A stretch of DNA of 46,691 nucleotides from a virus: IMG/VR virus record IMGVR_UViG_3300045988_173330; one strand, written 5' to 3'. Both the position numbers and the translations under genes were made by a program. The notes under the pieces were generated by a model, which saw only the letters and a program-made list of their open reading frames with translations, was not told the DNA's origin and did not search any database. Positions 88-43,983 of the stretch are shown one piece after another (position 1 is the first letter of the stretch; each line of letters starts with the position of its first letter).

Positions 88-116
88 CTACGTGATTGAA
101 TGATGATGTAAATATA

Positions 117-202
117 CTAGAAGTTCTATATCTAGCATAGAATTTCTAGTTAATTATTGTAAATATGCTAGATTTTCTATAATCAAACCTAGAATATCTA
201 TA
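117..202 (+). promoter_or_regulatory. Operator-like array: four copies of CTAGAnnTTCTAT(A), three direct and one inverted
   Basis: CTAGAAGTTCTATA 117-130; ATAGAATTTCTAG 137-149 (inverted); CTAGATTTTCTATA 168-181; CTAGAATATCTATA 189-202, overlapping the start codon of the CI-like gene. Confidence 0.6.
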
Positions 203-903
203 TGACTTTAAAAGAAAGAATGTTCTATCTAATTGAAAAAGAAGGACTTAATCCAAATCAATTTTATACCATCTCTGGATTAGGAAATGGGTACTTAAAT
301 AATGTAGGTGAAAGTTTCAGAAAGCCAACGATAGAAAAGATAAAAAAAAGCTTCCCGCATTGGAATATGGACTGGATTCTTTATGAAAAAGGAGAGCCTA
401 TTTCCAATATATCTAAAGAAAATATAGAAATTCTAGAAGCCATACCATTAAACCAAAACTATATTATAAACGTACCATTAGTAAATCAATACGCACAAGC
501 AGGTTATTTATGCGGATTTCAAGATGCTGCATATATAGCTACACTACCTACTATACCTTTTATAATAGACCATGAAGCTAAAGGAAACTATGTAGCATTT
601 GAAGTAAGAGGTGACAGTATGAATGATGGAACTGAAGAGAGTTACCTTGAAGGAGACAGACTTCTTTGTAGAGAAATAGCTCCATATCTGTGGGCAGAGT
701 CTAAATTGCATATCCGGAAATGGGATTTCGTTATTGTACATGAAGACGGAATTTTGGTAAAACGAATAATAGACCATAATGTAGAAAATCATACTATTAC
801 AATACACTCTTTGAACGATATGTATCCTGACAGAGTTATTGATTTGGCAGAAGTTAGGCAAATCTTCAATGTGATAGAATTGCAAAGGCCAAGAAGAAGA
901 TAG
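202..903 (+). CDS. CI-type repressor: phage-CI HTH + S24 (LexA-like) self-cleaving peptidase
   Basis: 233 aa. The N-terminal HTH ends ...FPHWNMDWILYEKGEP, as in phage CI repressor HTH domains. The C-terminal has a Ser/Lys dyad context (VRGDSMNDG ... DGILVKRII). Confidence 0.85.
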   Translation: MTLKERMFYLIEKEGLNPNQFYTISGLGNGYLNNVGESFRKPTIEKIKKSFPHWNMDWILYEKGEPISNISKENIEILEAIPLNQNYIINVPLVNQYAQAGYLCGFQDAAYIATLPTIPFIIDHEAKGNYVAFEVRGDSMNDGTEESYLEGDRLLCREIAPYLWAESKLHIRKWDFVIVHEDGILVKRIIDHNVENHTITIHSLNDMYPDRVIDLAEVRQIFNVIELQRPRRR

Positions 904-941
904 TTTAAAAGTTTAATATACAAACTATTAAAACTAATACT

Positions 942-2420
942 ATGAAATTCAATCAATACACATGGAACCTATATAAGCAATCTTCTGACGGACAAAAAGC
1001 TATTAAGGAGTTTGAGGAACCATCCAACAATGATACGATGATGGATTTGGTTTTCAAATACAATCCAAGAATGAAGTTATGGTTTAATGATGACAAATCC
1101 AGACTATCCATATCAAACATCAGTGAAAGCTTATGGTGTTACAATATCTGCGAATTTCCAGATGAGGAAAGACCTAATACACTGGAAGAAGCGAAAGAAA
1201 AGTATGAAGATGTTCTTTTTCGTGGGTTAACAGACAATGATGAAGTACTAATACCAGTCAACGACTATGAAATGATGTTGAATAGCATAACATGGACATC
1301 ATTCTTATTATATTATTTTGCACCAGAGTTTTTCTTCCCTAATATATTTATTTACCGTTTCTTTGATTTACATAAGATAGCAGATATGTTTGAGATAGAT
1401 TTACCGTCTATCCCAAAGAAATCAAACTATAAGGCGAGATGTATGTACTACTGGAGTTTATGCGAAGTGTTTTATCGATTTAGGGCAGAGAATGAGCTTT
1501 CTCCAGCAGAATTATGCGCTTTCCTATATGACTTTGCACCCAACTTCATGCCCCAAAAAGAAGCAGACGTTCCACAGCCAACACAAGCATGGTGTATCGG
1601 TGGATTGATTGATAAAAATGAATTATTTAGAACTACTTTTTGGCAAGCGAATCCAGAAACAAAGAAAGGCGATATTCTCATTCATTACGAAACCGCTCCA
1701 ATTAGTGCAATTACCCGAGTATGGATAGCTCAAACAGATGGAGTGATAGACCCATTCTTTCATTACTATGGAAACACCTACATAGGGAATAAAATTGATA
1801 TTCCACATATCAGCCTGAAAGAACTCCGAGAAGATAAATACTTCTCCAATCATCCGCTTGTTCGCAAGAACTTTCAAGGGGTAAGCGGATGGTCAATGAG
1901 TGGCGCGGATTATTCGGAACTCCTGCGAATGATAAAGGCAAAAGGATTTGACACTGATGTTCTGCCCAAACTATACGTTCCGACATTACCTAAAGGAATA
2001 GTTATAGAGTATGAACATGATGTGGAGCAACTGTTATTAGAGCCGTTATTAAACTCTATGGGATGGTATGAAAAGAAAGACTTCATCCGGCAGTTACCTA
2101 TTCAAGCAGGGAGAGGACATCGGGTGTTCCCGGATTACGCCTTGCACTATGACAACAAACCGGACGAAGAAAAAGCGAAAGTTCTGATTGAAGCCAAACT
2201 TCACATGAAGAACAACCAAGACATAGAAGCAGCCTTCTTGCAAGCACGTTCATACGCTCGGCTATTAGGTTCTTCTGCTATTGTCTTATGTGACAAGGAC
2301 TATTTACTTGTATATGAGAAGAAAGATAACTTCGACCGAGACAGTTATAAGAAATACTACTGGGGAGAACTTGAAAATCCCGATGTGTTCAACGAATTAA
2401 AGAACAAACTAAATATCTAA
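942..2420 (+). CDS. Putative modification-sensing nuclease: EVE/PUA-like central domain + C-terminal PD-(D/E)xK (HsdR-N/Mrr-like) domain
   Basis: 492 aa. FWQANPETKKGDILIHYETAPISAITRVWIAQTDG...HISLKELRED resembles EVE-domain topology (inference). FPDYALHYD...KVLIEAKLH gives a D...ExK nuclease motif. Confidence 0.55.
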   Translation: MKFNQYTWNLYKQSSDGQKAIKEFEEPSNNDTMMDLVFKYNPRMKLWFNDDKSRLSISNISESLWCYNICEFPDEERPNTLEEAKEKYEDVLFRGLTDNDEVLIPVNDYEMMLNSITWTSFLLYYFAPEFFFPNIFIYRFFDLHKIADMFEIDLPSIPKKSNYKARCMYYWSLCEVFYRFRAENELSPAELCAFLYDFAPNFMPQKEADVPQPTQAWCIGGLIDKNELFRTTFWQANPETKKGDILIHYETAPISAITRVWIAQTDGVIDPFFHYYGNTYIGNKIDIPHISLKELREDKYFSNHPLVRKNFQGVSGWSMSGADYSELLRMIKAKGFDTDVLPKLYVPTLPKGIVIEYEHDVEQLLLEPLLNSMGWYEKKDFIRQLPIQAGRGHRVFPDYALHYDNKPDEEKAKVLIEAKLHMKNNQDIEAAFLQARSYARLLGSSAIVLCDKDYLLVYEKKDNFDRDSYKKYYWGELENPDVFNELKNKLNI

Positions 2421-2424
2421 GATT

Positions 2425-3390
2425 ATGATAATCACAACTACTAATAATATAGAAAATTATTCAATAAAACGATACTTAGGTGTAGTAAATGCGAATATAG
2501 TTATTGGAGCAAATTTTTTCTCTGATTTTGCAGCATCACTAACAGATGTTTTTGGCGGACGCTCTAATACCTATCAAAACAAGCTAAACACCATATACAA
2601 GGAAGTAATGGCTGAATTAAAAGCAAAAGCCAAATCTTTTCAGGCTGATGCTATTGTTGGATTACATATAGACTTTGACGAAGTTTCCGGTGGAGGAAAA
2701 TCCATGTTTATGGTATCTGCATCTGGAACTGCTGTTATGATAGAAAATAACTTTGAAGATAGATACTTCATGTACAAAGCTCTCAGTGACATTCATGACT
2801 ATTGGAAAAAAGGATTTCTATCAGAAGAAGAATACAATTATGAAAAAGCAAGGATTATAGAAAAGTATAATAGCGCAATTTCGGCAGAGGTTACAGTAGT
2901 CAAAGAAACTAAAGAATACGAAGCAAAAAAGTTAAGAGAGCAAGAAGAACAAGAAGCTTATACTAAGAAAGTTCTTGAAGAAAAGCTAATCATAGCAAAG
3001 AAGGAATTAGAAAACAGATGCCCATGTTCTGAAGATACCATAAAAGAAACTACACATCTTCAAATACAAGCATCAGACTACAATAATATTCCATATAATA
3101 CTGACGATTCTATGGAAAGTATAATCGCAAAGTTTATTCGGTTAAACAGAATACCTGAAGCTTGCAAATATTACATGGATGAAACCGGATTGAACGATAC
3201 AGATGCTATTGAGTTTGTAGTTGATACTTATAAGAAAATAGACCAGATAGACAAAGATGCTTTTGAGAGGCTTCTTAATAAATTGAGGGTATTAAAAAAT
3301 AAAGGGTTTATTGAGCAAGCAATTAATGAATATCAAAAATTTACCCTATCAGAAAAAAATGCGGCAGAAACATTTATTAATGATTTATAA
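2425..3390 (+). CDS. YbjQ/UPF0145-domain protein with SHOCT-like motif and helical C-terminal repeats
   Basis: 321 aa. The first ~105 aa (GGRSNTYQNKL...ADAIVGLHIDFDEV...SASGTAV) match the YbjQ family pattern. KKGFLSEEEYNYEKARIIEKY is SHOCT-like, followed by coiled coil and two L7/L12-CTD-like helical units. Confidence 0.7.
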   Translation: MIITTTNNIENYSIKRYLGVVNANIVIGANFFSDFAASLTDVFGGRSNTYQNKLNTIYKEVMAELKAKAKSFQADAIVGLHIDFDEVSGGGKSMFMVSASGTAVMIENNFEDRYFMYKALSDIHDYWKKGFLSEEEYNYEKARIIEKYNSAISAEVTVVKETKEYEAKKLREQEEQEAYTKKVLEEKLIIAKKELENRCPCSEDTIKETTHLQIQASDYNNIPYNTDDSMESIIAKFIRLNRIPEACKYYMDETGLNDTDAIEFVVDTYKKIDQIDKDAFERLLNKLRVLKNKGFIEQAINEYQKFTLSEKNAAETFINDL

Positions 3391-3402
3391 AATAGACTGA
3401 TT

Positions 3403-3681
3403 ATGGTTGACTTTCTAACCATCATACTCCTAATATTCGGAGTACTGCAAATCATCCTCTTCTTCAAGGTATGGGGAATGACGAATGACATCAAAGAGAT
3501 AAGGAACAAGTACCTTAAAGACGAGGACGAGAAACGAAGACAAAAAGCAGAATACGACCCAACCCCAAAATCAGCGGTGGGGTTAAAACAACAATATAGC
3601 CGGAATTATTCCCCGGCTTTTTCTTTCCCTATTCGCAAGTTGTGCAAATGTTGTGCAGATAGCATAAAAAGAAAATGCTAA
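3403..3681 (+). CDS. Small N-terminally membrane-anchored protein (3' end uncertain)
   Basis: 92 aa. A hydrophobic helix FLTIILLIFGVLQIILFFKVW is followed by a charged helix. The last ~25 codons run through an intrinsic-terminator-like hairpin at 3598-3623, so the C-terminus may not be genuine. Confidence 0.45.
   Translation: MVDFLTIILLIFGVLQIILFFKVWGMTNDIKEIRNKYLKDEDEKRRQKAEYDPTPKSAVGLKQQYSRNYSPAFSFPIRKLCKCCADSIKRKC
3598..3623 (+). terminator. Intrinsic-terminator-like hairpin AGCCGG-loop-CCGGCT followed by TTTTTC
   Basis: 6-bp GC-rich stem plus a T-run, located inside the 3' part of ORF 3403-3681. Confidence 0.4.
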
Positions 3682-3710
3682 CAAGTTGTCAATGAACCTA
3701 TTAGCATTTT
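3672..3710. terminator. Bidirectional terminator-like hairpin between convergent genes
   Basis: AAAATGCTAA (3672-3681) pairs perfectly with TTAGCATTTT (3701-3710). A/T runs lie on both sides. It sits between the + operon end and the - gene ending at 3802. Confidence 0.55.
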
Positions 3711-3801
3711 TCCTTGTGATTCCGTTGCCACTACTTTTCATACTGGCTGATAGTCAATTATATATCTTTTGTTACCTAAATTACTTTTAGGAAAGGAGGT
3801 T

Positions 3802-3999
3802 TTAATCAACACCTGGCATTGAACAATACACATAGTAATCTTCCTCAATACAAGTTATTTTAACGTCAAATCCATCAGGGTCAATTCCGTCTGTGCTGAT
3901 GCAAATAGTATCTCCTACTTTCCCTAATAATTCTTTTATTTCCACCTCAAAACTGAACTGCCCAGCTTCAACAATATAGAGATACGCTTTTTTATCCAT
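3802..3999 (-). CDS. Hypothetical 65-aa protein, coupled downstream of the XRE repressor
   Basis: The ORF starts 2 nt after the stop of 4001-4381 on the same strand. It is acidic and has no recognisable motif. Confidence 0.45.
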   Translation of the reverse strand: MDKKAYLYIVEAGQFSFEVEIKELLGKVGDTICISTDGIDPDGFDVKITCIEEDYYVYCSMPGVD

Positions 4000-4000
4000 A

Positions 4001-4381
4001 TTACTTCTGCTTTTGGATTAATATTTGAATTGTTCTTTCTTTCTCAGTTATCACTCTTTCTTTTTCCTCCAATAGAGCGTTGAGATGCTCTATCTCTTTG
4101 CGACACTCGCTTAAAGTTATATCTCCAGAGATTTTATTACCATTGCCCTTAACTTGATGACCTATATTAATTCCAGAAGAGTTTATATCTCTATCAAAAA
4201 AATAATCTATTGGTACATTAAAATAATCTGCTATAATTTCCAGGTTGTCGGCACCAGGAATCGAAGTGTTATTAAGCCAAACATATAAGTTTGATTTAGA
4301 TATACTTGTGTCTTTCAAAAACTGTGCTTGACTGATCTTTCTATCTTCAAATAATCTTCTTATTTTATCAGGATTAAACAT
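4001..4381 (-). CDS. XRE-family HTH repressor with C-terminal coiled coil (immunity-switch candidate)
   Basis: 126 aa. ISQAQFLKDTSISKSNLYVWLNNTSIPGADNLEIIADYFNVPIDYFF is a classic Cro/CI-type HTH. It is divergent from the early operon. Confidence 0.8.
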   Translation of the reverse strand: MFNPDKIRRLFEDRKISQAQFLKDTSISKSNLYVWLNNTSIPGADNLEIIADYFNVPIDYFFDRDINSSGINIGHQVKGNGNKISGDITLSECRKEIEHLNALLEEKERVITEKERTIQILIQKQK

Positions 4382-4512
4382 GTTATACTATTTATACTAG
4401 ATTTAAATAATAATATAAGATTAAAATAATAGGATTAATATTTTGATATTAGACTATTATTTTAAACCTTTGCGTTATAAATATAATAATAACAATCGTA
4501 ATATTTAAGATT
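4382..4512. promoter_or_regulatory. AT-rich divergent promoter/operator region between the XRE repressor and the early operon
   Basis: 131-bp intergenic spacer with short repeats (TATACTA x2, GATTAA x2, TTAATAT/ATATTA inverted). No exact TAnnTTTG box seen. Confidence 0.4.
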
Positions 4513-4713
4513 ATGGAAGAGAAAAAGCAAAAAATGGTACCCAAGTACCATTACGACCAGATGGAGAAAAGCACGAGACTGAGGCTCCGTGATGAGTTCC
4601 TAAGAAGAAGCGGTATGTCATTGATTACATTCTACGACAAGTTAAGAAAAGACTCCTTCAAACCTTTGGAAAGAGAACTATATGAGAACATTTTCATAAT
4701 TCAACAAAATTAA
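4513..4713 (+). CDS. Hypothetical early protein (Cro/Xis-sized)
   Basis: 66-aa basic ORF, first gene of the rightward early operon. Confidence 0.5.
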   Translation: MEEKKQKMVPKYHYDQMEKSTRLRLRDEFLRRSGMSLITFYDKLRKDSFKPLERELYENIFIIQQN

Positions 4714-4727
4714 GAACCAATCAAATT

Positions 4728-4988
4728 ATGGAGGAATTTAAAAGAATACCCTTCGGTGGTAATCCCTATGCGGATTTTGAGTTTTTCAAGGTAGAATTAA
4801 AAGTCTGCGATGTGAAATACACTCCAGAGCAGATTTATGCACACTTTGAATTCACAAGTGGGTACAAAGTAGATGTACAAGGTACATTTTATCCCTCACT
4901 AATTCGCAAAGCTATAGTTCAAGTTCGCGAAATGGAGCAAGCACATATTACAAACTCATCACGTTGTGAAATTCATGCCGATAACTAA
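4728..4988 (+). CDS. Hypothetical early protein
   Basis: 86-aa ORF in the operon series. Confidence 0.5.
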   Translation: MEEFKRIPFGGNPYADFEFFKVELKVCDVKYTPEQIYAHFEFTSGYKVDVQGTFYPSLIRKAIVQVREMEQAHITNSSRCEIHADN

Positions 4989-5532
4989 CATCGAGTTCTA
5001 CAACACCCCCGAAGGTGATGTGATGATTAAAGAACTTGGGCATGCGGCAGTTGTGCTTTGTGAGGACAACCGCCCGACCATCGAGTACATGCTTGCTGTC
5101 ATCAGGGACAGATACCCGAAAGCACATGCCAGGTTAATGCAACTTTACTCCAGTAGTACAATGAATAGGTGGCATTATGAATTCCGGGTAGTTCACCGCT
5201 TCATCCGCTGCAACTTCGGCGAGTATGACCAATACAACCTTGACATCAATAAGGATGGACAATTCGTATTCGAGGAGGTAAAGTGCCCACTACGAGGTGA
5301 GTGCGAACATGAGGGAGTGATTTGTCGCCCGGAACTTGACACGGCACTAACCGCCCGTGAGATGAATGTTTTCAGACTCATCGCTTCCAATTGCCAGACG
5401 GATGATATTGCAGCGGAACTGCACATATCACCTTATACGGTGAACCGCCATCGGGAGAATATCAAAGCGAAAATCAAGGTTCATAATGTGAGTGAGATGA
5501 TTTCTTACTGGCATCAGAACCAGATGAAATGA
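4966..5532 (+). CDS. LuxR/GerE-type HTH transcription regulator with Cys/His-rich linker
   Basis: 188 aa. The C-terminal REMNVFRLIASNCQTDDIAAELHISPYTVNRHRENIKAKIKV is a GerE-type HTH. It is preceded by VKCPLRGECEHEGVIC. Confidence 0.75.
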   Translation: MKFMPITNIEFYNTPEGDVMIKELGHAAVVLCEDNRPTIEYMLAVIRDRYPKAHARLMQLYSSSTMNRWHYEFRVVHRFIRCNFGEYDQYNLDINKDGQFVFEEVKCPLRGECEHEGVICRPELDTALTAREMNVFRLIASNCQTDDIAAELHISPYTVNRHRENIKAKIKVHNVSEMISYWHQNQMK

Positions 5533-5915
5533 ATACCAATAAAAAAGAAATATCAATGAAGAAAGGTCAGAAAGTACGCATTCTGCGTACCAATCAGGTA
5601 GCGACAATCGTCGAAGTGGAGTTAATCAGAAAAAGTGGCAAGGTACACCGCTACTGTCATCTGAAGGTAGATAAAAAGCCGGACTTGTGGTTAGACTCTT
5701 CAGAACTGGGGGGATTGGTGGAAAGGTGCCGGATTACTTTCCATGATGACAGAGGGCAGGAATTATACTTCGATGTGGAGCGTGATTATGATAAGGAGAA
5801 TTTGAGCATGACATTGACCGGACGTCCAGAAAACCTCAAGGAGCATCACGGAATCAATATAGTGATGGCCGAAATGTTCCTCGATGGTTTTAAGGCACAC
5901 CAATCTCATTCTTGA
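5529..5915 (+). CDS. Hypothetical early protein
   Basis: 128-aa ORF; its ATGA start overlaps the upstream stop. Confidence 0.55.
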   Translation: MNTNKKEISMKKGQKVRILRTNQVATIVEVELIRKSGKVHRYCHLKVDKKPDLWLDSSELGGLVERCRITFHDDRGQELYFDVERDYDKENLSMTLTGRPENLKEHHGINIVMAEMFLDGFKAHQSHS

Positions 5916-5930
5916 TAATCACCACAACAT

Positions 5931-6272
5931 ATGACGGAAGAAAATCTTACACCATATATCCCTATCGGAACTTTATTCAAATACCTGCTCAAGGATTACC
6001 GTAGGGAGCGGCAGCGCACTATTCATATGGAGGCCCAAGTCAGAAGTCTGTTAAAGCGGAACGCCTATCTTGAGCAGGAAATAGGCAAAGTAAAGCAAAG
6101 ACTGCTGAAGAAGGTGGAAAAGAGTGAGAAACAGATTGATTACTCGCAGGAAATCAGCCGGCTGCACCAGGCTGTTTCCTGCCGGAACAACACGATGGAG
6201 CAGCTCAGGAATGAGAATGCCCGACTGAAAAATGAACTCGATACGTATTTGCTGTTTCTCGGCAAGATTTAA
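5931..6272 (+). CDS. Hypothetical coiled-coil protein
   Basis: 113 aa with heptad-like, charged sequence. Confidence 0.5.
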   Translation: MTEENLTPYIPIGTLFKYLLKDYRRERQRTIHMEAQVRSLLKRNAYLEQEIGKVKQRLLKKVEKSEKQIDYSQEISRLHQAVSCRNNTMEQLRNENARLKNELDTYLLFLGKI

Positions 6273-6327: not shown

Positions 6328-9300
6328 ATGTACTTTACTCAAGACGATATAAAACGAATCAAGGAGGCTTCCAAAGGCAGGCTCCTTGATGTTATCGGTG
6401 ACTTCCACGAACTACGCAAACGGGGGGCCGAATATAAATGCGAATGCCCTAAATGCCATGGACAAGAGAAGTTACATATCTCTCCGGCCAAACAGATTTT
6501 CAAATGCTTCAGTTGCCCGGATATAAAAGGCAAAGAACCGCTGGACTATCTGCAGAGGGCAGAAGACATGCAATTCCTGGAGGCATGCGATTACCTGGCG
6601 CGCAAATTCAATGTATTGCTGGACCCCAAACCGGAGAAGAAACCTTCCAAACCCACAAAAATGAAGAAACGGAGCAAGGAGGCCAAGGGAGAAAGTGTCG
6701 ATACATTCTGCGCCCGTATGCTTGCTGACAGCGGTCTGACCTATCAGGACGTGACGGCACATATCTTCAAGAAGGGAGATACACAGAGCATTTTCGAGGC
6801 GAAGACTTTCCGTCCGGGAACCGTTGACGAATACGGCAATATCGTTGACGGGGATGATGTCATCATCGAATATTACGACCTGGACGGCATGCCGGTCACT
6901 TATACCCGTAAGCTGCCGGGGCGTGGCAAGCAGGAACTCAAAGTGTATTACCGCGTCCGCTGGCAATTCCCGGAAGAACACCGGGACAAGGAAGGGAAAC
7001 CGTTCAAGTACAAGTCTCCTGCCGGCAGCGGTACGCCCATATACATCCCGGAACGCATGAGGCAGATGTACAAGAGGAAAGAGCAGTTCCCAAGACTCTA
7101 CATCCAGGAAGGAGAAAAGAAAGCGGAAAAGGCATGCAAGCACGGTATCCCCTCCATAGCGGTCAGCGGCATCCAGAACCTGGGACAGAAAGGGGCGTTG
7201 CCGGAGGATCTTGTCAAGATAATCACTGTCTGCGGAGTCAAGGAAGTGGCTTTCATTTTTGATGCGGACTGGAATGACCTCTCCCGTAACATTAAGTTCA
7301 ATGCTCCAGTTGATTTTCGACCACGCAGTTTCTTCTCCGCTGCCCGAAACTTCAAGGAATATATGCGTATGCTGAAGAACCGCGGTATCATGGTGGAAAT
7401 ATTCATTGGCCACATCAACAAGAACGATGAAGGCGACAAGGGAGTGGACGACCTCTTGGCCGATAAGCTGGCCGGTCATGAAGAGGAACTGGCCGAAGAC
7501 CTGGAATTTGCCTGCAACGAGAAGTCCGGAATGGGAAAGTATGTGGAAGTGTTCAAAATCACCACATGGAATGACCAGAAACTACGGGAATTATGGAACC
7601 TGCACAGCCATGAAAAATTTGCCGAGCAGCACCGCGAGGTCCTGCAGGAGCTTCCGGAATTTATCTTTGGTCGCTATGCCTGGAAGTTTGACGAGAACGG
7701 CAAATTGGTATCTGCCCTACCCTATGATGAGGATGAGAAGTTCTGGAATGAGGACTACAAGGAAACGAACGGTAACAGGGTGCCGGTGTTTGAATATGAT
7801 TATGTGGCCGCCAAGACCTTTTTCCAGAACCGGGGTATCGGCCGTTACCGCCTGCTCGATACCAAACTCTGGACATATATCCATCTGGAGCCGCCGGTAG
7901 TCCGCACCATTGACGTGGAAGACGCACGCGATTTCATGTTCGCCTTTGCCGAACAGAACTGCAGCCGTTTCGTCAACAACCAGCTACTCAAGGGAGGCTC
8001 GCAATACGTCGGACCGTTCCAGATGTCAAGGCTCGCCTTCATCCAACCGAACTTCATCTCCCCGTCCCGTGACGAGCAATATTTCTATTTCCGTGACCGT
8101 TGCTGGCACATCACCCAGCATGAGGTCAAGGAAGTGGGATATGAAAGCATCACCCACCAGATATGGGATGAACAACGGAAGAACACCGATGCCAGGTACC
8201 TCGGCCACCCCCTCATTATATTCAGGGAGAAGGACGGCAGGTATGACTACGAACTCTCTCCGGAAGGCAGGAAATGCCACTATCTCCAGTTCCTTATCAA
8301 TACCAGCAATTTCACCTGGAGAAAGAGGCCGGAAGAGATTGAGGAGAGTGAAATCTTTGAAAACAATCTTCATCTGCTTTCTAAGATGTGCGCCATCGGC
8401 TACATGCTGATGGAATGCAAGGACGCGAACGTGACACGTGCCGTTATCGGCATGGACGGCAAGCAGTCGGAAGTCGGTGACAGCAACGGACGCAGCGGCA
8501 AGTCACTTGTCGGTGAGCTGATGCGCCAGGTTGTCGATACAGTCTATATATCCGGGAAACGGACGGACATCTTCAACGACAGCTTTATCTGGAATGACAT
8601 CGACGAACGGACACGCCTGGTATTCATCGACGATGTCATGCTGAACTTCAACTTCGAGTTTCTGTTCCCCAATCTCACCGGAGACTGGACTGTGAACAAA
8701 AAGGGGGGCGCACGTATCACTTATCCGTTCGCCAAATCACCCAAAGTATATATCCCCACCAATCATGCCATCCGCGGTACCGGTTCCAGCTATACCGACA
8801 GGCAATGGCTGATAGCCTTCTCCGATTTTTATAATGACAAGCACAAGCCCATGGATGATTTCGGGGTACTGTTCTTTTCCGAATGGGACTTCACCCAGTG
8901 GAACCTGACCTGGAACATGCTGGCCAACTGCATACAGCTCTATCTTAAATTCGGGGTCGTGCAGGCACCGGGCGAACGCCTGCAGCAGCGTAAGCTAAGG
9001 CAGGAGATTGGCGAGACCATCATATCCTGGGCGGACGAATACTTCAGCAGCGAGGAGCACTGTCGCCGTACCCCACGCAAGGAGATTTATGACAATTTCT
9101 GCAACTATGATCCGCAGCAACGCAAGTACATCACTTCCACCGCCTTCAAGGACAAGATAAAAAAATACTGCGAATGGAAGGGCTGGGTGTTCAACCCACA
9201 CAAGTATGACGCCAAAAGCGGTCTGCCTCTCTTCCTGGACAAGGACGGGAAACCGGTTATAGATGACAAGTCCGGAGGAGTGGAGTATTTCACCATAGGC

Positions 9301-9381
9301 AAGACAGCCGGAGAGCAGACACCCCAGAGTGACCCGCATGAACTACCGGTTGGCAATCCGGACAACAAACTTGCATTCTGA
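6328..9381 (+). CDS. Primase-helicase: zf-CHC2 + Toprim + P4/D5-type P-loop NTPase
   Basis: 1017 aa. Zinc finger CECPKCHGQEKLHISPAKQIFKCFSC; Toprim-like IQEGEKKAEKACKHGIPSIAVSG...FIFDADWND; Walker A NGRSGKSLVGE and Walker B LVFIDDV. Confidence 0.9.
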   Translation: MYFTQDDIKRIKEASKGRLLDVIGDFHELRKRGAEYKCECPKCHGQEKLHISPAKQIFKCFSCPDIKGKEPLDYLQRAEDMQFLEACDYLARKFNVLLDPKPEKKPSKPTKMKKRSKEAKGESVDTFCARMLADSGLTYQDVTAHIFKKGDTQSIFEAKTFRPGTVDEYGNIVDGDDVIIEYYDLDGMPVTYTRKLPGRGKQELKVYYRVRWQFPEEHRDKEGKPFKYKSPAGSGTPIYIPERMRQMYKRKEQFPRLYIQEGEKKAEKACKHGIPSIAVSGIQNLGQKGALPEDLVKIITVCGVKEVAFIFDADWNDLSRNIKFNAPVDFRPRSFFSAARNFKEYMRMLKNRGIMVEIFIGHINKNDEGDKGVDDLLADKLAGHEEELAEDLEFACNEKSGMGKYVEVFKITTWNDQKLRELWNLHSHEKFAEQHREVLQELPEFIFGRYAWKFDENGKLVSALPYDEDEKFWNEDYKETNGNRVPVFEYDYVAAKTFFQNRGIGRYRLLDTKLWTYIHLEPPVVRTIDVEDARDFMFAFAEQNCSRFVNNQLLKGGSQYVGPFQMSRLAFIQPNFISPSRDEQYFYFRDRCWHITQHEVKEVGYESITHQIWDEQRKNTDARYLGHPLIIFREKDGRYDYELSPEGRKCHYLQFLINTSNFTWRKRPEEIEESEIFENNLHLLSKMCAIGYMLMECKDANVTRAVIGMDGKQSEVGDSNGRSGKSLVGELMRQVVDTVYISGKRTDIFNDSFIWNDIDERTRLVFIDDVMLNFNFEFLFPNLTGDWTVNKKGGARITYPFAKSPKVYIPTNHAIRGTGSSYTDRQWLIAFSDFYNDKHKPMDDFGVLFFSEWDFTQWNLTWNMLANCIQLYLKFGVVQAPGERLQQRKLRQEIGETIISWADEYFSSEEHCRRTPRKEIYDNFCNYDPQQRKYITSTAFKDKIKKYCEWKGWVFNPHKYDAKSGLPLFLDKDGKPVIDDKSGGVEYFTIGKTAGEQTPQSDPHELPVGNPDNKLAF

Positions 9382-9701
9382 TGAGCGAGACACATTCCAG
9401 TATCATGGCCAGACTTATGCCGCTCTACGAGATGGCGCCCGAACGTTTCATGGCGTTCTATGATGCGGTGTATCTGATGTGTGTCGATCTGCCGGAAGGC
9501 TGCCGGTTCCGTATCTCAGACCGTTGCCGGGAAAAAGACCTGGAACTGTTCCGGGACATCGTGAAGACTCTCATTGCGGAACAGCCTTACGACAAGTATG
9601 CAGGACAATTGGAACTGTCGGATGATATGGAGTATGTGCGGCGGACAACCGGCTTTAAACCTTCCGGGAACCGCTTCATCCCGAAATGGAGAAAGGGATA
9701 G
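9381..9701 (+). CDS. Hypothetical protein coupled to the primase gene
   Basis: 106-aa ORF; its start overlaps the primase stop (TGATG). Confidence 0.55.
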   Translation: MSETHSSIMARLMPLYEMAPERFMAFYDAVYLMCVDLPEGCRFRISDRCREKDLELFRDIVKTLIAEQPYDKYAGQLELSDDMEYVRRTTGFKPSGNRFIPKWRKG

Positions 9702-9760
9702 AATATGTCAATTTATTATGATGTAAAGATACATATTTTCAACGAATTACGCAAACAATC

Positions 9761-10090
9761 ATGCTGAAAAAAGAGCACAAAATATTGGTGGTCGTTTCTC
9801 CGGAACCGGCTGAACGCAAGAGACTGTTGAGCCGCCTGGCAGTACGGCTCGGTTTCGCACTCATCCCTTCGGATGCAGCGAAAATCATATCGAACGACAT
9901 CTACGGCATAGACCTGGCGACGGCCTATTTCGTTTTCTGCAGCAGCTACAATTTCCGTGGAGCCGTACTCACCAACCAGCGCTTGTATGAAATGGCGGCG
10001 CGAGGCTTGTGTGTGGCTGTAGGAGTCCGTTCCATTCCCCGTGAATATGAATTCATCTGCAAGGTGTTCTATCCGGAAGATTTTCCGTGA
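9761..10090 (+). CDS. Hypothetical protein
   Basis: 109-aa ORF followed by a strong + strand terminator. The overlapping 181-aa minus ORF has no such support. Confidence 0.5.
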   Translation: MLKKEHKILVVVSPEPAERKRLLSRLAVRLGFALIPSDAAKIISNDIYGIDLATAYFVFCSSYNFRGAVLTNQRLYEMAARGLCVAVGVRSIPREYEFICKVFYPEDFP

Positions 10091-10148
10091 TGACATTCCC
10101 GGAAAACACAATGCGGAGTATTCTTGAAAGTGCATATTAGGTATTTGT

Positions 10149-10190
10149 CTGCATCCGGCTGTGCGTGAGTACAGCCGGATGCAGTTTTTT
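10149..10190 (+). terminator. Strong intrinsic terminator
   Basis: Perfect 14-bp stem CTGCATCCGGCTGT / ACAGCCGGATGCAG, 8-nt loop, then TTTTTT. Confidence 0.85.
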
Positions 10191-10196
10191 CTTCTG

Positions 10197-10220
10197 CCCC
10201 TTCCCCCCTCCCCCCAACCC
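10197..10220 (-). other. G-quadruplex-capable tract (C-runs on +, G-runs on -)
   Basis: CCCC tt CCCCCC t CCCCCC aa CCC, four runs of at least 3 C separated by 1-2 nt. Confidence 0.6.
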
Positions 10221-10339
10221 GTCATAATAACGATTCGGACAAACGTGCATGGAAGTGGCAACAGACATGAGAATTCCCGGAGGGGGTATATTATTCTTTT
10301 TTTATTCTTCTTTTTAAAATTGGACTACCTTAAAAAACA

Positions 10340-20119: not shown

Positions 20120-20680
20120 ATGGCAGCAAAAAGAAACATCCCCGAAGCATGGAAAAATCAATGGTCTAAATTCATGTTTAACTTCTTTGATTACTTGCCT
20201 ACCAAGTACGAGGCTAACAAACGGGAGTGGTCTATCCGCAGGATGATATGGGATTTTAAGGACGGGAAGCGCAGTGCGTCTGTGGCAGAACTTGTAGCGA
20301 AGAAGATGCGCGAGCAGTTCGGTGCGGAGGTTTGCAACGTGACGTTGGTCTGCATACCAGCCAGTAGCGGAGAGAAGAACGAAATCAGATACAAGGCTTT
20401 TGCCGAAGAGGTGGCACGGCTGACGGGGTGCAGGAATGCGTACAAAGCAATTACCATTGAGGGTGGACGGCTTGCCATCCATGAGACGAAAGCGGCCAAG
20501 ACGGTGCAGACGGTGGAGGTCATCAAGTTTGACAAGCGTTTTTTCAAGGGTAAGAAATGCCTTGTATTCGATGATATACTGACGCAGGGGCATAGTTACG
20601 CACGGTTTGCGTGTGCACTTGAAACGCTTGGGGCAGAGGTTTTGGGAGGCTATTTCTTAGGCAAGACAATTCTTTTATAA
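20120..20680 (+). CDS. ComF/GntX-like type I phosphoribosyltransferase-domain protein
   Basis: 186 aa. PRPP-binding motif KKCLVFDDILTQGHSYARF. Confidence 0.75.
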   Translation: MAAKRNIPEAWKNQWSKFMFNFFDYLPTKYEANKREWSIRRMIWDFKDGKRSASVAELVAKKMREQFGAEVCNVTLVCIPASSGEKNEIRYKAFAEEVARLTGCRNAYKAITIEGGRLAIHETKAAKTVQTVEVIKFDKRFFKGKKCLVFDDILTQGHSYARFACALETLGAEVLGGYFLGKTILL

Positions 20681-20699: not shown

Positions 20700-21290
20700 A
20701 TGAATACTCTTTTTGATAACGATTGCCGCTACATGAGCGACAGCGAACTGATTTACGAAATCAGCAACAACAGACAGATTGTTTCGGACATCGAACGCAG
20801 CAACGAAGTGATAGACCTTGAAAAATTGTTTTCCTCTTTGACTCCTGGACGCAGGAGGGTAGCCGTGGCAGCCGTGGAGATGTACAAGAGACAACTGTCG
20901 CAGCAGGTGGAACGTAGGCAAATAAGGATGAGCAAAGACGTATACGAACTGATGGAGCCGTTGATAGGAGATTTGCCGAATGAGGAATTTTGGGTAGTGT
21001 CGATAAACCAAGCCGGACGGATTATCAAGAAAGTACGCATATCGGTAGGCGGTATTGACCAGACTTCAGCGGATATAAGACTGATTATGCGCGTGCTGAT
21101 TGATACGGGGGCGGTGCAGTTCGCAGCGGTGCACAACCATCCGAGTGGCAACAGCCGACCGAGCAATGAGGACAAGAGGCTGACGGAGCAACTTAAAAAG
21201 GCGGCAGGGTTATTCAATATTAGGATGATAGACCATGTGATTATAACGAATGGTGGATATTACAGTTTTGGCGATGAGGGGCTGATTTGA
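20700..21290 (+). CDS. radC: RadC-like JAB/MPN-domain protein
   Basis: 196 aa. JAMM motif AAVHNHPSGNSRPSNEDKRLT. Confidence 0.9.
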   Translation: MNTLFDNDCRYMSDSELIYEISNNRQIVSDIERSNEVIDLEKLFSSLTPGRRRVAVAAVEMYKRQLSQQVERRQIRMSKDVYELMEPLIGDLPNEEFWVVSINQAGRIIKKVRISVGGIDQTSADIRLIMRVLIDTGAVQFAAVHNHPSGNSRPSNEDKRLTEQLKKAAGLFNIRMIDHVIITNGGYYSFGDEGLI

Positions 21291-21494: not shown

Positions 21495-21731
21495 ATGCCA
21501 ACAATTTTAATTTTATTCGGTTTGAAGTTTAGAATTTATGTACGTGACCACGAACCGGTGCATGTACATGTACTCAGTCAAGACGGTGAAGCCAAGTTCC
21601 AGGTAGGTGATGAAATCCGGTTGATGGTCAATAAAGGAATGAAGCCCAAAGACATAAAACTGGCTGAGTCTATTATTGAAGAGAACAAAGAGTTGATTAT
21701 TACAGAATGGGTTAAGATATACGGCAAATAA
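21495..21731 (+). CDS. DUF4160-family protein
   Basis: 78 aa. MPTILILFGLKFRIYVRDHEPVHVHV... follows the family pattern (N-terminal MPTI..., HxPxHxH). Confidence 0.8.
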   Translation: MPTILILFGLKFRIYVRDHEPVHVHVLSQDGEAKFQVGDEIRLMVNKGMKPKDIKLAESIIEENKELIITEWVKIYGK

Positions 21732-21764
21732 GCCGTATATCTCTATACATAGAAAGGAGTGATT

Positions 21765-22172
21765 ATGGTAGCGAAAAAAGTTTGGTTCGAAGGTGAACGA
21801 ATCTACATCGAAACTGATGACGGTCGTACGTTGTGGCAGTCAATCTTGTATTATCAAAGATTGAGGAATGCCACCAAAGAGCAGCGCGAGGATTATGAGC
21901 TGGGAGCTTTCGGCATTCACTGGGAAGAGATTGACGAGGATGTTTCTTACGAGAGCTTTGAATATGATGATCCAGAACCGGCAGGTATCTCCCGCTTGTT
22001 CCTTACACACCCGGAGATAAACGCTTCGGCTGTTGCCCGACGGATGGGGATGCAGCAGAGTTTGTTGGCACAGTATATACGGGGAATTAAACGTCCCTCA
22101 AAAGAACGGGAGCAGGCGATATTGAATACGGTGCGTGAAATCGGAAAGGAATTGAGCGGTATTTCAATTTAA
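21765..22172 (+). CDS. DUF2442-family protein fused to a C-terminal XRE-like HTH
   Basis: ATG at 21765 preferred over the GTG at 21759. LRNATKEQREDYELGAFGIHWEEIDEDVSYESF is the DUF2442 pattern. The C-terminal SAVARRMGMQQSLLAQYIRGIKRPS is HTH-like. Confidence 0.75.
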   Translation: MVAKKVWFEGERIYIETDDGRTLWQSILYYQRLRNATKEQREDYELGAFGIHWEEIDEDVSYESFEYDDPEPAGISRLFLTHPEINASAVARRMGMQQSLLAQYIRGIKRPSKEREQAILNTVREIGKELSGISI

Positions 22173-22179
22173 AAAGAGA

Positions 22180-22209
22180 AGCGGAGCAAAAAACTCCGCT
22201 TTTCTTTTG
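22180..22209 (+). terminator. Intrinsic terminator
   Basis: AGCGGAG / CTCCGCT stem, loop CAAAAAA, then TTTCTTTTG. Confidence 0.7.
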
Positions 22210-22228
22210 TTGTTTCAAAAGAAACTCT

Positions 22229-22236
22229 CATCTTTG
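22229..22236 (+). promoter_or_regulatory. Near-consensus -7 box CATCTTTG (CATCTTTGCAG)
   Basis: Shares ATCTTTGCAG with the box at 21461. Transcription would start about at motif copy 1 (22241). Confidence 0.4.
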
Positions 22237-22240
22237 CAGT

Positions 22241-22486
22241 GCTAAACAGTTACGGTCACACCGTATCGCAGAGCGCGGTCAATGCTCAATGAATTTCAGT
22301 GGGCTTTTTTTATGCCCATACATTAACCATTTTACTGACGTCAGTAAAATGATACATACGAAATAGGCGGCTGCCTTTCCCATTACACTTTTGCTCTACG
22401 AGCGGAATCTGTAACTGTTTAGCGACACGGGAAATGGCAGCCGTTCTTCTTTTAAGAAAATTGCCTAAAATGCTAAACAGTTACAG
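22241..22486 (+). promoter_or_regulatory. Leader with three copies of GCTAAACAGTTAC (direct, inverted, direct): candidate alternative-pairing switch
   Basis: Copy 1 at 22241-22253. Copy 2 is inverted, GTAACTGTTTAGC at 22411-22423. Copy 3 at 22472-22484 ends 3 nt before the ATG at 22488. Copies 2 and 3 can form a perfect 15-bp helix (CTGTAACTGTTTAGC / GCTAAACAGTTACAG). Confidence 0.55.
22328..22351. repeat. Perfect 24-bp palindrome CATTTTACTGACGTCAGTAAAATG
   Basis: Self-complementary with no spacer, centred on TGACGTCA, inside the leader. Confidence 0.9.
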
Positions 22487-22487
22487 T

Positions 22488-22763
22488 ATGAAAAATCAAA
22501 CATCCGGTGCGCTTATCGCACCAGAACCCGCAGGGATTCGTGTATCCGAGAACTTGAAAGCTCTGAATGAGCAAGTATCCAACATCCAATGCCGCTACTA
22601 CCGCGTCCTGGCTCCCGATTGCGAAATAAAGACCGAAGCCGATTGCTGGTACTTCCGTGCCATTGTCTGGGCATGTGCCGCGATGGTGTTCCCTCCCCTA
22701 CTGGCGGCAGCCGCGTTGTGTGTTTATAAGGCAAAGAAGTGCCGGAAAGGGGGTGAGGCATGA
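22488..22763 (+). CDS. Small protein with C-terminal transmembrane helix
   Basis: ATG at 22488 preferred, because the upstream ORF extension lies in the repeat leader. The hydrophobic stretch is FRAIVWACAAMVFPPLLAAAALCVY. Confidence 0.5.
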   Translation: MKNQTSGALIAPEPAGIRVSENLKALNEQVSNIQCRYYRVLAPDCEIKTEADCWYFRAIVWACAAMVFPPLLAAAALCVYKAKKCRKGGEA

Positions 22764-23504: not shown

Positions 23505-23536
23505 AAATACTAACCGGAGATTTTTTTATTTTTGAA

Positions 23537-23567
23537 GTCCTTGCTCGTGAGAGTAAGGGCTTTTTTT
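23537..23567 (+). terminator. Intrinsic terminator
   Basis: CCTTGCTC / GAGTAAGG stem (one G-U pair), loop GTGA, then GC TTTTTTT. Confidence 0.7.
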
Positions 23568-41738: not shown

Positions 41739-42167
41739 ATGGACGTACAGAAAGAATTGGGAAAATGGAAGTCGGAATATGTAAAATGCAATACTCCGGA
41801 GGAATTGGCCGACCATAAAAAACGTTTCAGGGCTTTTCTGCAGACGCTTTCACCGGAGGATAAAAAAGCGTTTGCGCAAGCATTCCAAGATGGTGCCAGG
41901 CAATCAATCAATGAAGCCCAAGCCATTGTGAAAACAGTAGAAATCAGGCAGACCTTAGAAAAAGTATTGCCTTTCGCTTCTATGTCGTATATTGCCCAGC
42001 ACTATTTTGGCAGAACACGCCAATGGCTATATCAACGGATTAACGGAAGTGCGGTAAACGGCAAACCAGCCAACTTCACCGCTGATGAACTGAATACTCT
42101 ATCTTTAGCTCTATCTGAGCTTGGCGACATAATGAAAGATACTTCTCGGTCTATCGCGAGGCCGTAA
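41739..42167 (+). CDS. DUF5053-family protein
   Basis: 142 aa. RQWLYQRINGSAVNGKPANFTADELNTL matches the conserved core of this Bacteroidota phage-associated family, as I recall it. Confidence 0.7.
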   Translation: MDVQKELGKWKSEYVKCNTPEELADHKKRFRAFLQTLSPEDKKAFAQAFQDGARQSINEAQAIVKTVEIRQTLEKVLPFASMSYIAQHYFGRTRQWLYQRINGSAVNGKPANFTADELNTLSLALSELGDIMKDTSRSIARP

Positions 42168-42185
42168 GGTTTTTAATGACAGAGG

Positions 42186-42212
42186 GGCTTCCACGGGTTG
42201 GAAGCCTTTTTT
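42186..42212 (+). terminator. Intrinsic terminator; marks the core/right-arm boundary
   Basis: GGCTTCCA / TGGAAGCC stem, loop CGGGT, then TTTTTT. Confidence 0.85.
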
Positions 42213-42270
42213 ATTTCATTATTCAAATAATCATGAATTAAATTTAGAATAAAAAGTTTTTTTATTTTGT

Positions 42271-42278
42271 TAAGTTTG
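42271..42278 (+). promoter_or_regulatory. -7 promoter box TAAGTTTG
   Basis: Exact TAnnTTTG, about 134 nt upstream of the ATG at 42412. The leader contains ATGAATTAAAT twice and the hairpin AACCCA-taagat-TGGGTT. Confidence 0.45.
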
Positions 42279-42411
42279 ATAAAATCACTATTTTAGCAAC
42301 GCCAAAAAATGAATTAAATGAATCCTTTTCCATAGTGTAACCCATAAGATTGGGTTCAGGTTTATTCATTCCTGTAGGCGCACTATAGTGAAGGATTCGC
42401 CATTTAATATT

Positions 42412-43815
42412 ATGACAAACAAAAAATACAAATCTATCAGTATTTCTAATTTAATTATAAATCCAGATAATGATCGTTTTGAGTCTGTTGAGAATGAAAA
42501 GCAGGCTATAGACATAATGCTAACAAAATTAGGAGACAAAATTTATTATATTGCGATACATATTTTAGAGAATGGGTTGTCTCCCAAGCCATTTTATGTT
42601 ATGCCATCAAAGAAATCTAACAAGAAATTTCTTGTAAAGGAAGGAAACAGAAGAACCACAGCATTAAAATTGATGGCTAACCCTAAGTTAATTGATTCTA
42701 AAAAACATGCTTCATTAAAGAATCGTTTTTTTAAGCTGCATGAAAGATTTATGGAAACTCCGATTAGAAAAATAATGTGCTATATTTATGATGATGTAGA
42801 AGAGGCAGATAAATGGGTTCGATTAGAACATACAGGAGAACAGAATGGAGTTGGTATAGTTGAGTGGAAACCAGAGCAAGTACAGAGATTTGATATAAAA
42901 CATGGAAAAAATAAGTCTGTAGAAATACAAGCTATTGATTTCATACGAACATCTCCTTTCGTACAAGAAGAAGTAAAGAGGGCTTCCGAAAACATTAAAC
43001 TCACAAATTTTGCTCGTTTATTAGGAGATAAAAGTGTTCGGGAAATTTTGGGTTTAAAGTATATAAATTCTAAATTAAGTTCTAATCTTGAAGAAGAAGA
43101 AATAGCTAAGGCCTTAGGGCAAATTATTTTAGATTTGTCTGATAAAGATTTTAAGGTTAGTTCTATATATAATGCCAAGCAAAGAAAAGATTATATTCAA
43201 GGCTTAGGAGAAAAACTGCCTGATAAAAATAAGACAATAGGAGAAGTTTGGAGGTTGGATAATCCATTAGAACAAATTCCTAATTTGGAAGAAGAAGATA
43301 ATACAGCAAAGAATGAGGGAAGTGATTTGCATTCTAAGGGACATTTAAAGAAGTCTATTCCGACCCAACGTAAAACTCTTATACCCAATAATTGTATTAT
43401 TAGGATTTCCAATCCAAAAGCAAATAAAATTTATGATGAATTGAAAAAAATAGATGTTCGAAGTTTTGTTAATTGTGCAGCTGTCACTTTGAGAGTTTTT
43501 TTAGAATTAAGTGTAGATACTTTCATTGAAAAAAAAGGATTACTTAAAGAAGGAGAAATTTCGGCTTCCAATTCTTCAAGAAGTTTGTATCAGAAGGTTA
43601 ATGATGCTAGTCAATACTTATATAAAGAGAAAATTGCAGATGAAACAATATTAAAAGCTGTAAAATTATTAACCAAAGAACGTAATTCTATTTGGGGAGT
43701 GGATACAATGAATGCTTATGTACATAGTAACAAACTTTCCCCTGTGCCAATAGATATTCAAACAACTTGGGATAATATTCAGGATTTTATGGTAATCTTG
43801 GAATATCTTTTTTAG
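42412..43815 (+). CDS. ParB/Srx-fold (ParB-N or DUF262-like) N-terminal domain protein with an unassigned C-terminal domain
   Basis: ATG at 42412 preferred over the GTG at 42388. ISISNLIINPDNDRFE ... VKEGNRRTTALKLM resembles the ParB-N / DGQQR-type motif. About 467 aa. Confidence 0.6.
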   Translation: MTNKKYKSISISNLIINPDNDRFESVENEKQAIDIMLTKLGDKIYYIAIHILENGLSPKPFYVMPSKKSNKKFLVKEGNRRTTALKLMANPKLIDSKKHASLKNRFFKLHERFMETPIRKIMCYIYDDVEEADKWVRLEHTGEQNGVGIVEWKPEQVQRFDIKHGKNKSVEIQAIDFIRTSPFVQEEVKRASENIKLTNFARLLGDKSVREILGLKYINSKLSSNLEEEEIAKALGQIILDLSDKDFKVSSIYNAKQRKDYIQGLGEKLPDKNKTIGEVWRLDNPLEQIPNLEEEDNTAKNEGSDLHSKGHLKKSIPTQRKTLIPNNCIIRISNPKANKIYDELKKIDVRSFVNCAAVTLRVFLELSVDTFIEKKGLLKEGEISASNSSRSLYQKVNDASQYLYKEKIADETILKAVKLLTKERNSIWGVDTMNAYVHSNKLSPVPIDIQTTWDNIQDFMVILEYLF

Positions 43816-43983
43816 TGCCTTATACAAAGGACTTTGGGAGAATTACCCAATTTTGAGGTAATGACTTGGCAACTGTGCAATCTGCTGCGTTATACCTTGA
43901 ATTGCTTTCAAGTAACTCGTTTCCGTGTACAAAAATAATAGAATAGTCCGATGCACACAAGGTACATCAAAGAAAAAGTTCGA

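Follow-up and report, generated by a model that had tools for sequence, protein, structure and literature searches.

A family of leader RNAs in Bacteroides phages with three covarying copies of a hypervariable sequence and predicted mutually exclusive helices at a start codon

IMG/VR virus record IMGVR_UViG_3300045988_173330 is a stretch of 46,691 nucleotides (nt), here called the window, in which a leader RNA of about 250 nt (22240-22487) precedes an operon of four small open reading frames (ORFs), ORF1 to ORF4. The leader carries three copies of one sequence, C1, C2 and C3 (Table 1), with C2 in inverted orientation. Our comparison with related loci shows a conserved family of leader RNAs in which one antisense arm, C2, is predicted to pair either with the 5' end of the transcript (C1) or with the initiation region of ORF1 (C3), and in which a covarying scaffold would form a third fold. 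We read the element as a sequester/anti-sequester leader whose hypervariable copy sequence, the code, serves as an antisense specificity system of the kind known from P4 CI and P1 c4, with predicted action in trans, and we give this reading as a whole about even chances.

Three copies of one sequence and their conservation

The 13-mer GCTAAACAGTTAC is present as exact copies at 22241-22253 (plus strand), 22411-22423 (minus strand) and 22472-22484 (plus strand). With at most 2 mismatches allowed, 4 matches were found in the window as compared to 0.77 expected, a number reached by none of 100 shuffles, and the fourth match (45970, 2 mismatches) lies outside the phage body. The copies make up two perfect inverted repeats that share C2, one of 15 base pairs (bp; 22409-22423 with 22472-22486) and one of 13 bp (22241-22253 with 22411-22423) with arms 157 nt apart. 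Both helices reach 16 bp once G.U pairs are allowed. At C3 the 16-bp helix ends 1 nt and the exact 13-mer 3 nt before the ATG at 22488, which is the conserved ORF1 start in all relatives. A first-pass annotation of this DNA had described the 13-mer at these three positions, its 15-bp and 13-bp perfect pairings with a domain of about 157 nt, and the third copy ending 3 nt before this ATG, all of which we recovered. It had also described a translationally coupled operon of four small proteins, which agrees with the 4-nt overlaps between the ORFs and with the absence of any family match for ORF1-4 in Pfam, PHROGs and NCBIfam.

Among the loci examined, about 110 related loci share the layout, including Bacteroides prophages and BT-TP2, a cultured temperate phage of B. 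thetaiotaomicron and relative of the window phage (PMC12694917). ORF1 relatives with 56-100% amino-acid identity are encoded by 80 IMG/VR loci (individual loci are given as L numbers below). The 41 distinct leaders beside ORF1 homologues include about 37 with a clear plus/minus/plus triplet at the same positions, and BT-TP2 also keeps this arrangement. A pattern scan of IMG/VR for the conserved hairpin described below added about 25 further full-length leaders with new codes; taken alone the scan is nonspecific, with about 35 of its first 80 matches being leaders. The copy sequences differ between relatives (e.g. GCGAAACAGTACA, GCTAAACATCAGTAG, GCCAAACAATAC, TTGCTCTAACAGTTG and TGCATTCCA), and in all at least 50 codes were found, the three copies changing jointly. 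The expectation that the three copies would be conserved together in relatives was thus upheld, in the form of co-variation.

The C3 copy ends 0-8 nt before the ATG in relatives. Class 1 leaders, which include the window, have helices of 13-20 bp, class 3 leaders have a longer 5' domain, and in class 2 leaders C3 is short (8-10 nt) and the C1:C2 helix of 21-23 bp contains two G.U pairs at its centre. Across the family the repeat can be as short as 8 nt or as long as 23 nt. The direction in which the helix extends is not the same for C1 and C3, and in many class 1 leaders the C3 pairing runs 4-7 nt beyond that of C1. Only about 0.4-3 kb around the leader is common to the loci, which are mosaics, the leader block being swapped between otherwise divergent phages. 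Our literature searches found no description of the element in the papers searched.

RNA pairing, scaffold and competing folds

Since whole-leader alignment by MAFFT misregisters the three copies, pairs in the C helices were counted in ungapped, pairing-anchored blocks in Python, and tool-based counts are limited to the scaffold and the GGGC hairpin. At interior positions without a Watson-Crick pair we found 41 distinct G.U contexts and 4 mismatches (binomial p = 5e-9 against a null of 0.5, which is generous), or by our own count about 24 versus 3 independent events. Where the copies differ, C1 or C3 almost always has a G facing a U of C2, or a U facing a G, as read on the sense strand only, and this asymmetry therefore argues for an RNA helix and not a double-stranded DNA site. 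Most G.U contexts (37/41) are in C1:C2, as in BT-TP2 where this helix has 19 bp with three G.U pairs, while C2:C3 is near-perfect Watson-Crick. Hairpins with a C(UUCG)G tetraloop are found in 17 of 26 class 1 and 3 leaders, and UUCG-type tetraloops stabilise RNA, not DNA, an argument used as in PMC2864571. Taken together, these patterns indicate that the copies probably act through RNA pairing and not as DNA sites.

The same patterns bear on a DNA-level element, that is three protein sites (repressor/operator or integrase arm) or the repeats of an invertible switch. The plus/minus/plus repeats near a promoter do resemble operators, and a helix-turn-helix (HTH) gene is located just upstream; this gene is however unlinked from the leader in BT-TP2 and L092. 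Bacteroides is rich in invertons, but the promoter lies outside the inverted repeats and no invertase or recombinase gene adjoins the leader in the window or in BT-TP2. The strand-asymmetric, G.U-compatible differences (41 vs 4), the variable repeat length with helices that extend differently, and the adjacent covarying stems and UUCG tetraloops all point to RNA, so that we consider this explanation very improbable. The refuting case named in the first-pass annotation, in which the copies are DNA-level binding sites only, is argued against by the same strand-specific differences. An inverton or DNA-operator reading had been tried as a candidate and was rejected on the G.U asymmetry, the variable helix lengths and the position of the promoter upstream of all three copies.

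The putative promoter (Table 1) has an arrangement that we take to fit the Bacteroides consensus, reportedly given by Bayley et al. in 2000 as TTTG/TAnnTTTG. It is kept 3-4 nt upstream of C1 in every relative, in all leader classes and in BT-TP2, and because of this conservation C1 is predicted to be the 5' end of the transcript, with transcription starting at about 22238-22242. The earlier proposal of a transcript 5' end near copy 1 is thereby plausible as far as the conserved promoter-like match goes, with the start itself inferred.

RNAalifold consensus folding of 27 diverse leaders gave two elements, a GGGC-U7AU-GCCC hairpin and a scaffold stem CGGCUGCCUUUCCC / GGGAAAUGGCAGCCG (22368-81 / 22429-43) that surrounds a small hairpin and C2. 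In these two elements 94.4% of cells are paired as compared to at most 53.5% in slid controls, 8 pairs change on both sides as compared to 0-2, and none of 500 shuffles matched the observed pairing and covariation values. The GGGC hairpin (UGGGC-UUUUUUUAU-GCCCA in the window) is 99% paired with invariant columns G65-C68 and T71-74. Its near-invariance, loop included, extends to BT-TP2 and the neighbouring sequence varies; it could be a candidate protein-binding hairpin, somewhat like a boxB site. Downstream of it the window has a palindrome (CATTTTACTGACGTCAGTAAAATG, core TGACGTCA) in whose place relatives have a covarying hairpin or none (L001-type leaders).

Behind the scaffold, 23 of 26 leaders have a U-tract with 5 or more U within 8 nt. 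The scaffold stem and U-tract look like a terminator, one that carries a 47-nt insert within its stem, and termination may occur there. The gap between C2 and S3, the 3' half of the stem, is only 4 nt (ACAC) and the full C1:C2 helix crosses the stem, therefore the two should exclude each other as nested folds. Just upstream of C3, (C/U)UGCC pairs with the GGCAG of S3, and these segments take part in a three-way covariation (GACAG/CUGUC in L023; GGUAG/CUACC in L064).

Constrained folds were used for the competing states, because the minimum free energy (MFE) structure depends on the assumed 5' end. For a transcript from 22240 with the full leader, the energies were -75.9 kcal/mol for C2:C3 (the MFE), -75.1 for C1:C2 and -74.4 for the scaffold, placing the three folds in the window leader within 1.5 kcal/mol of each other. 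For a transcript from 22240 to the U-tract, where C3 is not yet transcribed, C1:C2 gave -70.4 and the scaffold -69.3 kcal/mol. In the 26 class 1 and 3 leaders, C1:C2 is less stable than the best fold by a median of 2.4 kcal/mol, and its median gap to C2:C3 is likewise 2.4 kcal/mol. Unconstrained folding of 22237-22500 by RNAfold, a check proposed in the first-pass annotation, yielded neither helix; with constraints, the leader has the mutually exclusive helices of a riboswitch-like expression platform. That mutually exclusive helices of copy 2 gate the start, as had been suggested, is supported by the co-varying copies, the strand-specific G.U pairs and the near-isoenergetic states.

Table 1. 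Features of the leader, the operon and the surrounding phage genome (positions in the window)
Feature	Position	Strand	Remarks
Promoter (putative)	22206-22236	+	TTTG at 22206-09 (-33), 19-nt spacer, -7 box CATCTTTG at 22229-36
C1, 5'-terminal copy TGCTAAACAGTTACGG	22240-22255	+	16-bp pairing with C2 including G.U
Local hairpin ACGG-TCACA-CCGT	22252-22264	+	5' arm overlaps 3' end of C1; other sequences in relatives
Hairpin UGGGC-UUUUUUUAU-GCCCA	22300-22318	+	stem and loop near-invariant in all classes
Perfect 24-nt palindromic hairpin CATTTTACTGAC/GTCAGTAAAATG	22328-22351	+	variable or absent in relatives
S5, scaffold stem 5' half CGGCTGCCTTTCCC	22368-22381	+	compensatory changes
Small hairpin within scaffold, UUUUGCUC-UAC-GAGCGGAA	22389-22407	+	C(UUCG)G tetraloop in many relatives
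C2, antisense arm CTGTAACTGTTTAGCG	22409-22424	+	unpaired in scaffold fold; partner C1 or C3
S3, scaffold stem 3' half GGGAAATGGCAGCCG	22429-22443	+	compensatory changes
U-rich tract TTCTTCTTTT	22444-22453	+	directly 3' of scaffold stem
TTGCC	22461-22465	+	pairs with S3 GGCAG, lengthening the C2:C3 sequestering helix
C3, TGCTAAACAGTTACAG	22471-22486	+	spans -17 to -2 of ORF1
ORF1, 91 amino acids (aa), hydrophobic C-terminal segment	22488-22763	+	proposed to be directly gated by C3
ORF2, 68 aa	22760-22966	+	4-nt overlap with ORF1
ORF3, 81 aa	22963-23208	+	4-nt overlap with ORF2
ORF4, 99 aa	23205-23504	+	4-nt overlap with ORF3
Operon terminator	23534-23563	+	closes the four-gene operon
Holin gene	starts 23583		after the operon terminator
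Phosphoribosyltransferase-like gene	20120-20680		upstream of leader
RadC	20700-21290		upstream of leader
DUF4160 / DUF2442-HTH gene pair	21495-22172		directly upstream of leader
DUF2442-HTH gene	21759-22172		directly upstream of leader
Intrinsic terminator of DUF2442-HTH gene	22172-22208	+	15-pair stem and T-run
S24-peptidase repressor-like gene	202-903		left end of window
XRE HTH	4001-4381	-	left end of window
GerE regulator	4966-5532		left end of window
UvrD-type helicase	43984-46599	-	right end of window
Head protease and primase	in window		annotated
Endolysin	in window		annotated
Minor tail protein	in window		annotated

The code as a specificity determinant

The folds would fit the following course of events. 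When C1 holds C2, the 5' end would be base-paired, the terminator-like scaffold stem blocked and C3 free, and ORF1 would be translated (ON). When C1 is unavailable, the scaffold would form with the U-tract after it and termination would be possible (OFF); in the OFF state C2 would also close on C3, extended by GGCAG:UUGCC, and block initiation. The leader RNA that bears C2 may further recognise C1 and C3 of other transcripts in trans, and a resident prophage could in this way keep the operon of any same-code phage shut by means of its leader RNA, once terminated or processed.

We compared leaders that share at least 93% identity apart from the copies, and in these the density of substitutions within the copies is 5-25 times that of the remaining leader. 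In the pair L054/L065 there are 10/40 in the copies and 2/206 elsewhere (p = 2e-7), in L018/L068 10/54 and 3/157, and in L071/L079 7/50 and 3/190, a pattern by which selection appears to act to change and diversify the code. Pairing energies over 35 codes gave a median for C2:C3 of -26.3 kcal/mol for cognate and -8.4 kcal/mol for non-cognate combinations, and the best partner of C2 was its own C3 in 32 of the 35 codes and its own C1 in 34. The codes are thus largely orthogonal. Tandem arrays of modules, each with promoter, leader and the first ~45 ORF1 codons, are present in L015, L016, L017, L066 and L082, and the codes within the array differ in L015, L016, L017 (three modules) and L082. The hypervariable and orthogonal code in a conserved scaffold, the modules in arrays and the selection to change and diversify the code are the reasons why we suggest action in trans.

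Several observations concern the modules themselves. The L017 array (1967-3002) and those of L015, L016, L066 and L082 hold 2-3 modules with a full ORF1 only in the last copy, and the truncated ORF1 frames run into the next leader. L092 has a second module at 8967-10240, of class 2 and with a code (TGCTCTTCA) differing from the first; the operon that it drives encodes proteins of 65 aa and 120 aa together with paralogues of ORF3 and ORF4, and is convergent with a tyrosine integrase. On the 41-kb contig IMGVR_UViG_3300045988_161780 (L011, L057) two ORF1-type modules are ~10 kb apart, with the codes GCACTACA and TTGCATTCCA. The window phage has no second module.

A purely cis-acting switch would need no trans RNA: C1:C2 would form first (ON, with a protected 5' end) and C2:C3 later (OFF), or a protein, ligand or temperature would tip the balance, and the code would vary only by drift with compensation. 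Such a kinetic switch is a serious rival, and a possible explanation although we hold it to be unlikely. It accounts well for the G.U asymmetry, as the concentration of G.U pairs in C1:C2 and the longer C3 pairing would let the ON state form first for kinetic reasons and then give way, by strand displacement, to a thermodynamically favoured OFF state, and it is in line with the two nearly isoenergetic states; the invariant GGGC-U7AU-GCCC hairpin could then be the candidate site of a bound protein. It does not, however, account for the accelerated, orthogonal code: drift gives no reason why substitutions should be so much denser in the copies than in unpaired leader, or why the scaffold sequence stays near-constant while the triple helix set changes, and the orthogonal codes and the differing codes within arrays are left unexplained. 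Class 2 leaders without an energy balance, and the lack of a known aptamer, also speak against it.

Class 2 leaders bear on a further alternative, in which the C1:C2 duplex (16-23 bp) would be cut by a double-strand-specific RNase, as in phage leaders processed by RNase III, so that C2 is lost from the mRNA and C3 irreversibly freed, or the reverse. In this class the 21-23 bp helix with its two central G.U pairs dominates the fold, and nothing in the leader lies further 5' than C1. In class 1, however, the helices do not exceed 13-20 bp, and cleavage explains neither the match of C3 to C2 nor the hypervariable code, which makes a processing-controlled leader improbable in our view.

Other observations weigh against the antisense specificity reading that we prefer. 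The energy balance is not universal, as in class 2 C1:C2 beats C2:C3 by ~13 kcal/mol. Orthogonality is limited by the 7-nt GCNAAAC shared by class 1 codes, codes that are single-nucleotide neighbours cross-pair, and the L066 array consists of two modules with the same code. A good U-tract is missing in 3 of 26 leaders. We saw no promoter from which C2 could be transcribed on its own, so that self-inhibition would be possible in a terminated leader, which would have C1 as well as C2. The inferred parts of the reading are the start of transcription, its end at the U-tract, processing of the RNA and action in trans, and ORF1-4 of the window are without assigned function.

Carried further, the specificity reading would become an RNA-only heteroimmunity or addressing system, where a prophage silences incoming or co-resident phages with the same code in trans and the arrays hold antisense specificities against competitors. 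We regard this extension as doubtful. If true, it would be a protein-free, array-like exclusion system under diversifying selection.

Gene context, known systems and significance

The first gene behind the leader varies. In other loci the same leader precedes a ~65-aa family or other small membrane-type proteins, and in L098 (IMGVR_UViG_3300029472_000003, minus strand, ~7543-7325 and downstream) it stands directly on an antirepressor gene, whose 249-aa product has Phage_pRha and ANT/KilAC domains and whose ATG follows C3 by 1 nt. A hydrophobic C-terminal segment is found in ORF1 and several alternative first genes, and other first genes are not hydrophobic. The homologues of ORF4 are all labelled 'hypothetical'; its AlphaFold model (pLDDT 78) has a winged-helix-like topology and gave no significant structural match in the PDB. 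A scan of the window found no convincing minus-strand promoter of the kind that a type I toxin-antitoxin antisense gene would have.

Two side observations were made in the coding region. First genes that are unrelated to each other encode products with K(K)GGxx at the C-terminus, directly ahead of the ATG of the overlapping next gene (window 22738-22763: AAAGGGGGTGAGGCATGA), a pattern that suggests a purine-rich element conserved at the junction, with a role in translational coupling. A stem-loop, TCCGGTGCG-CTTAT-CGCACCAGA, is situated at 22503-22525, 15 nt into ORF1, where it was flagged as minus-strand terminator-like; the ORF1 copies that are truncated in the L017 array have kept its sequence.

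The window corresponds to a phage or prophage of ~36 kb at ~50% G+C with flanks of ~35% G+C, the fall being seen at 1-6000 and 42000-46691, and a human faecal phage scaffold matches it at 98% identity. Neither an integrase nor a transfer RNA (tRNA) was found in the window; the scan for tRNA and transfer-messenger RNA gave no match. The phosphoribosyltransferase-like, RadC, DUF4160 and DUF2442-HTH genes look like cargo between the head and the lysis/tail modules. The T-run of the DUF2442-HTH terminator contains the -33 TTTG of the leader promoter. Relatives are Bacteroides prophages, e.g. in B. heparinolyticus, B. timonensis, B. uniformis and B. helcogenes, and the prophage in B. uniformis (L092, WQQO01000084; strain of GCA_018785825.1) shows synteny with the window, shares its leader without a single difference and carries a tyrosine integrase at its end. 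Signs of a temperate lifestyle are the S24 and XRE repressor genes in the window and the integrase of this relative.

The antisense mechanisms of P4 and P1 have been summarised (PMC4825925, PMC8198154), and the P4 CI-like CA RNA of N15 is referred to in PMC4488713. As in P4 CI with its seqA, seqB and seqC, the leader has a direct-inverted-direct triplet in one leader behind one promoter, the central antisense segment is placed in a structured small-RNA scaffold with targets upstream and downstream, and the host phage is temperate. In a P4 lysogen the outcome is premature termination or silencing of the downstream genes (PMC4825925). Unlike P4 CI, the element has C1 at the extreme transcript 5' end, its downstream target on the start codon region and different controlled genes, it occurs in Bacteroides and not in an enterobacterial host, and no sequence or covariance-model similarity was seen; processing, trans action and termination are here predictions from the sequence.

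The c4 RNA of P1 and P7 (RF01695, the c4-a1b1 motif; icd-ant) is listed in PMC2864571, and its role is treated in PMC8198154. It is likewise an antisense RNA within the leader of the repressed operon, with segments a1b1, a'b' and a2b2; one of its targets, a1b1, lies upstream and the other, a2b2, at the ribosome-binding region of the small gene that comes first, and the antirepressor gene behind the L098 leader is a parallel to P1 c4-ant. The heteroimmune phages P1 and P7 are said, after Citron and Schuster in 1990, to differ by matched antisense and target changes. Unlike c4, the leader gave no match to RF01695, it uses one arm of 13-23 nt and not two short segments, it has at least 50 codes versus two immunity types, and it forms tandem module arrays. 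There is also no Shine-Dalgarno sequence to mask, since Bacteroides initiates translation differently.

In Gifsy-1 IsrK a leader terminator gives rise to a short RNA that pairs with the read-through transcript of the same promoter (PMC4825925). Altered access to the start site of the first ORF is common to both, but IsrK activates translation and has neither a three-copy repeat nor a hypervariable code. Riboswitch and attenuator platforms resemble the leader in having mutually exclusive helices, one of which masks initiation, and possibly a terminator alternative. They differ in that here no aptamer is recognisable, hypervariability falls on the switching helices and the scaffold around the antisense arm forms the conserved core. 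Rfam 15 gave 0 matches over the whole window at gathering thresholds, and in E-value mode over 22150-22560 only chance-level matches (snoRNA, miRNA etc., far below gathering) without C4/RF01695; no known riboswitch aptamer was thus found by these scans of window and leader, and the conserved region 22256-22408 may hold an unrecognised one. The earlier comparison with an attenuator or riboswitch therefore stands for the sequester/anti-sequester logic and not for a ligand riboswitch, as there is no known aptamer and the hypervariable code is closer to P1 c4 and P4 CI. With a plus/minus/plus triplet after one promoter, a target on the initiation region and matched changes, the element would work like the enterobacterial antisense-immunity leaders and is not a member of those families.

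Control by base-pairing RNAs is poorly known in Bacteroidota, which to our knowledge have neither Hfq nor classical Shine-Dalgarno initiation. In a review of phage-encoded small RNAs from 2025, Bacteroides goes unmentioned. The structured leader family described here is widespread, and the comparative support for it is unusually clean. If action in trans is true, the code would define immunity types of abundant gut prophages and help to explain which phages are able to live together in one Bacteroides strain, and it would offer a set of orthogonal RNA switches for Bacteroides engineering. If the leader acts only in cis, it would still provide a new and testable model of how translation is controlled in an organism that has no Shine-Dalgarno sequences.

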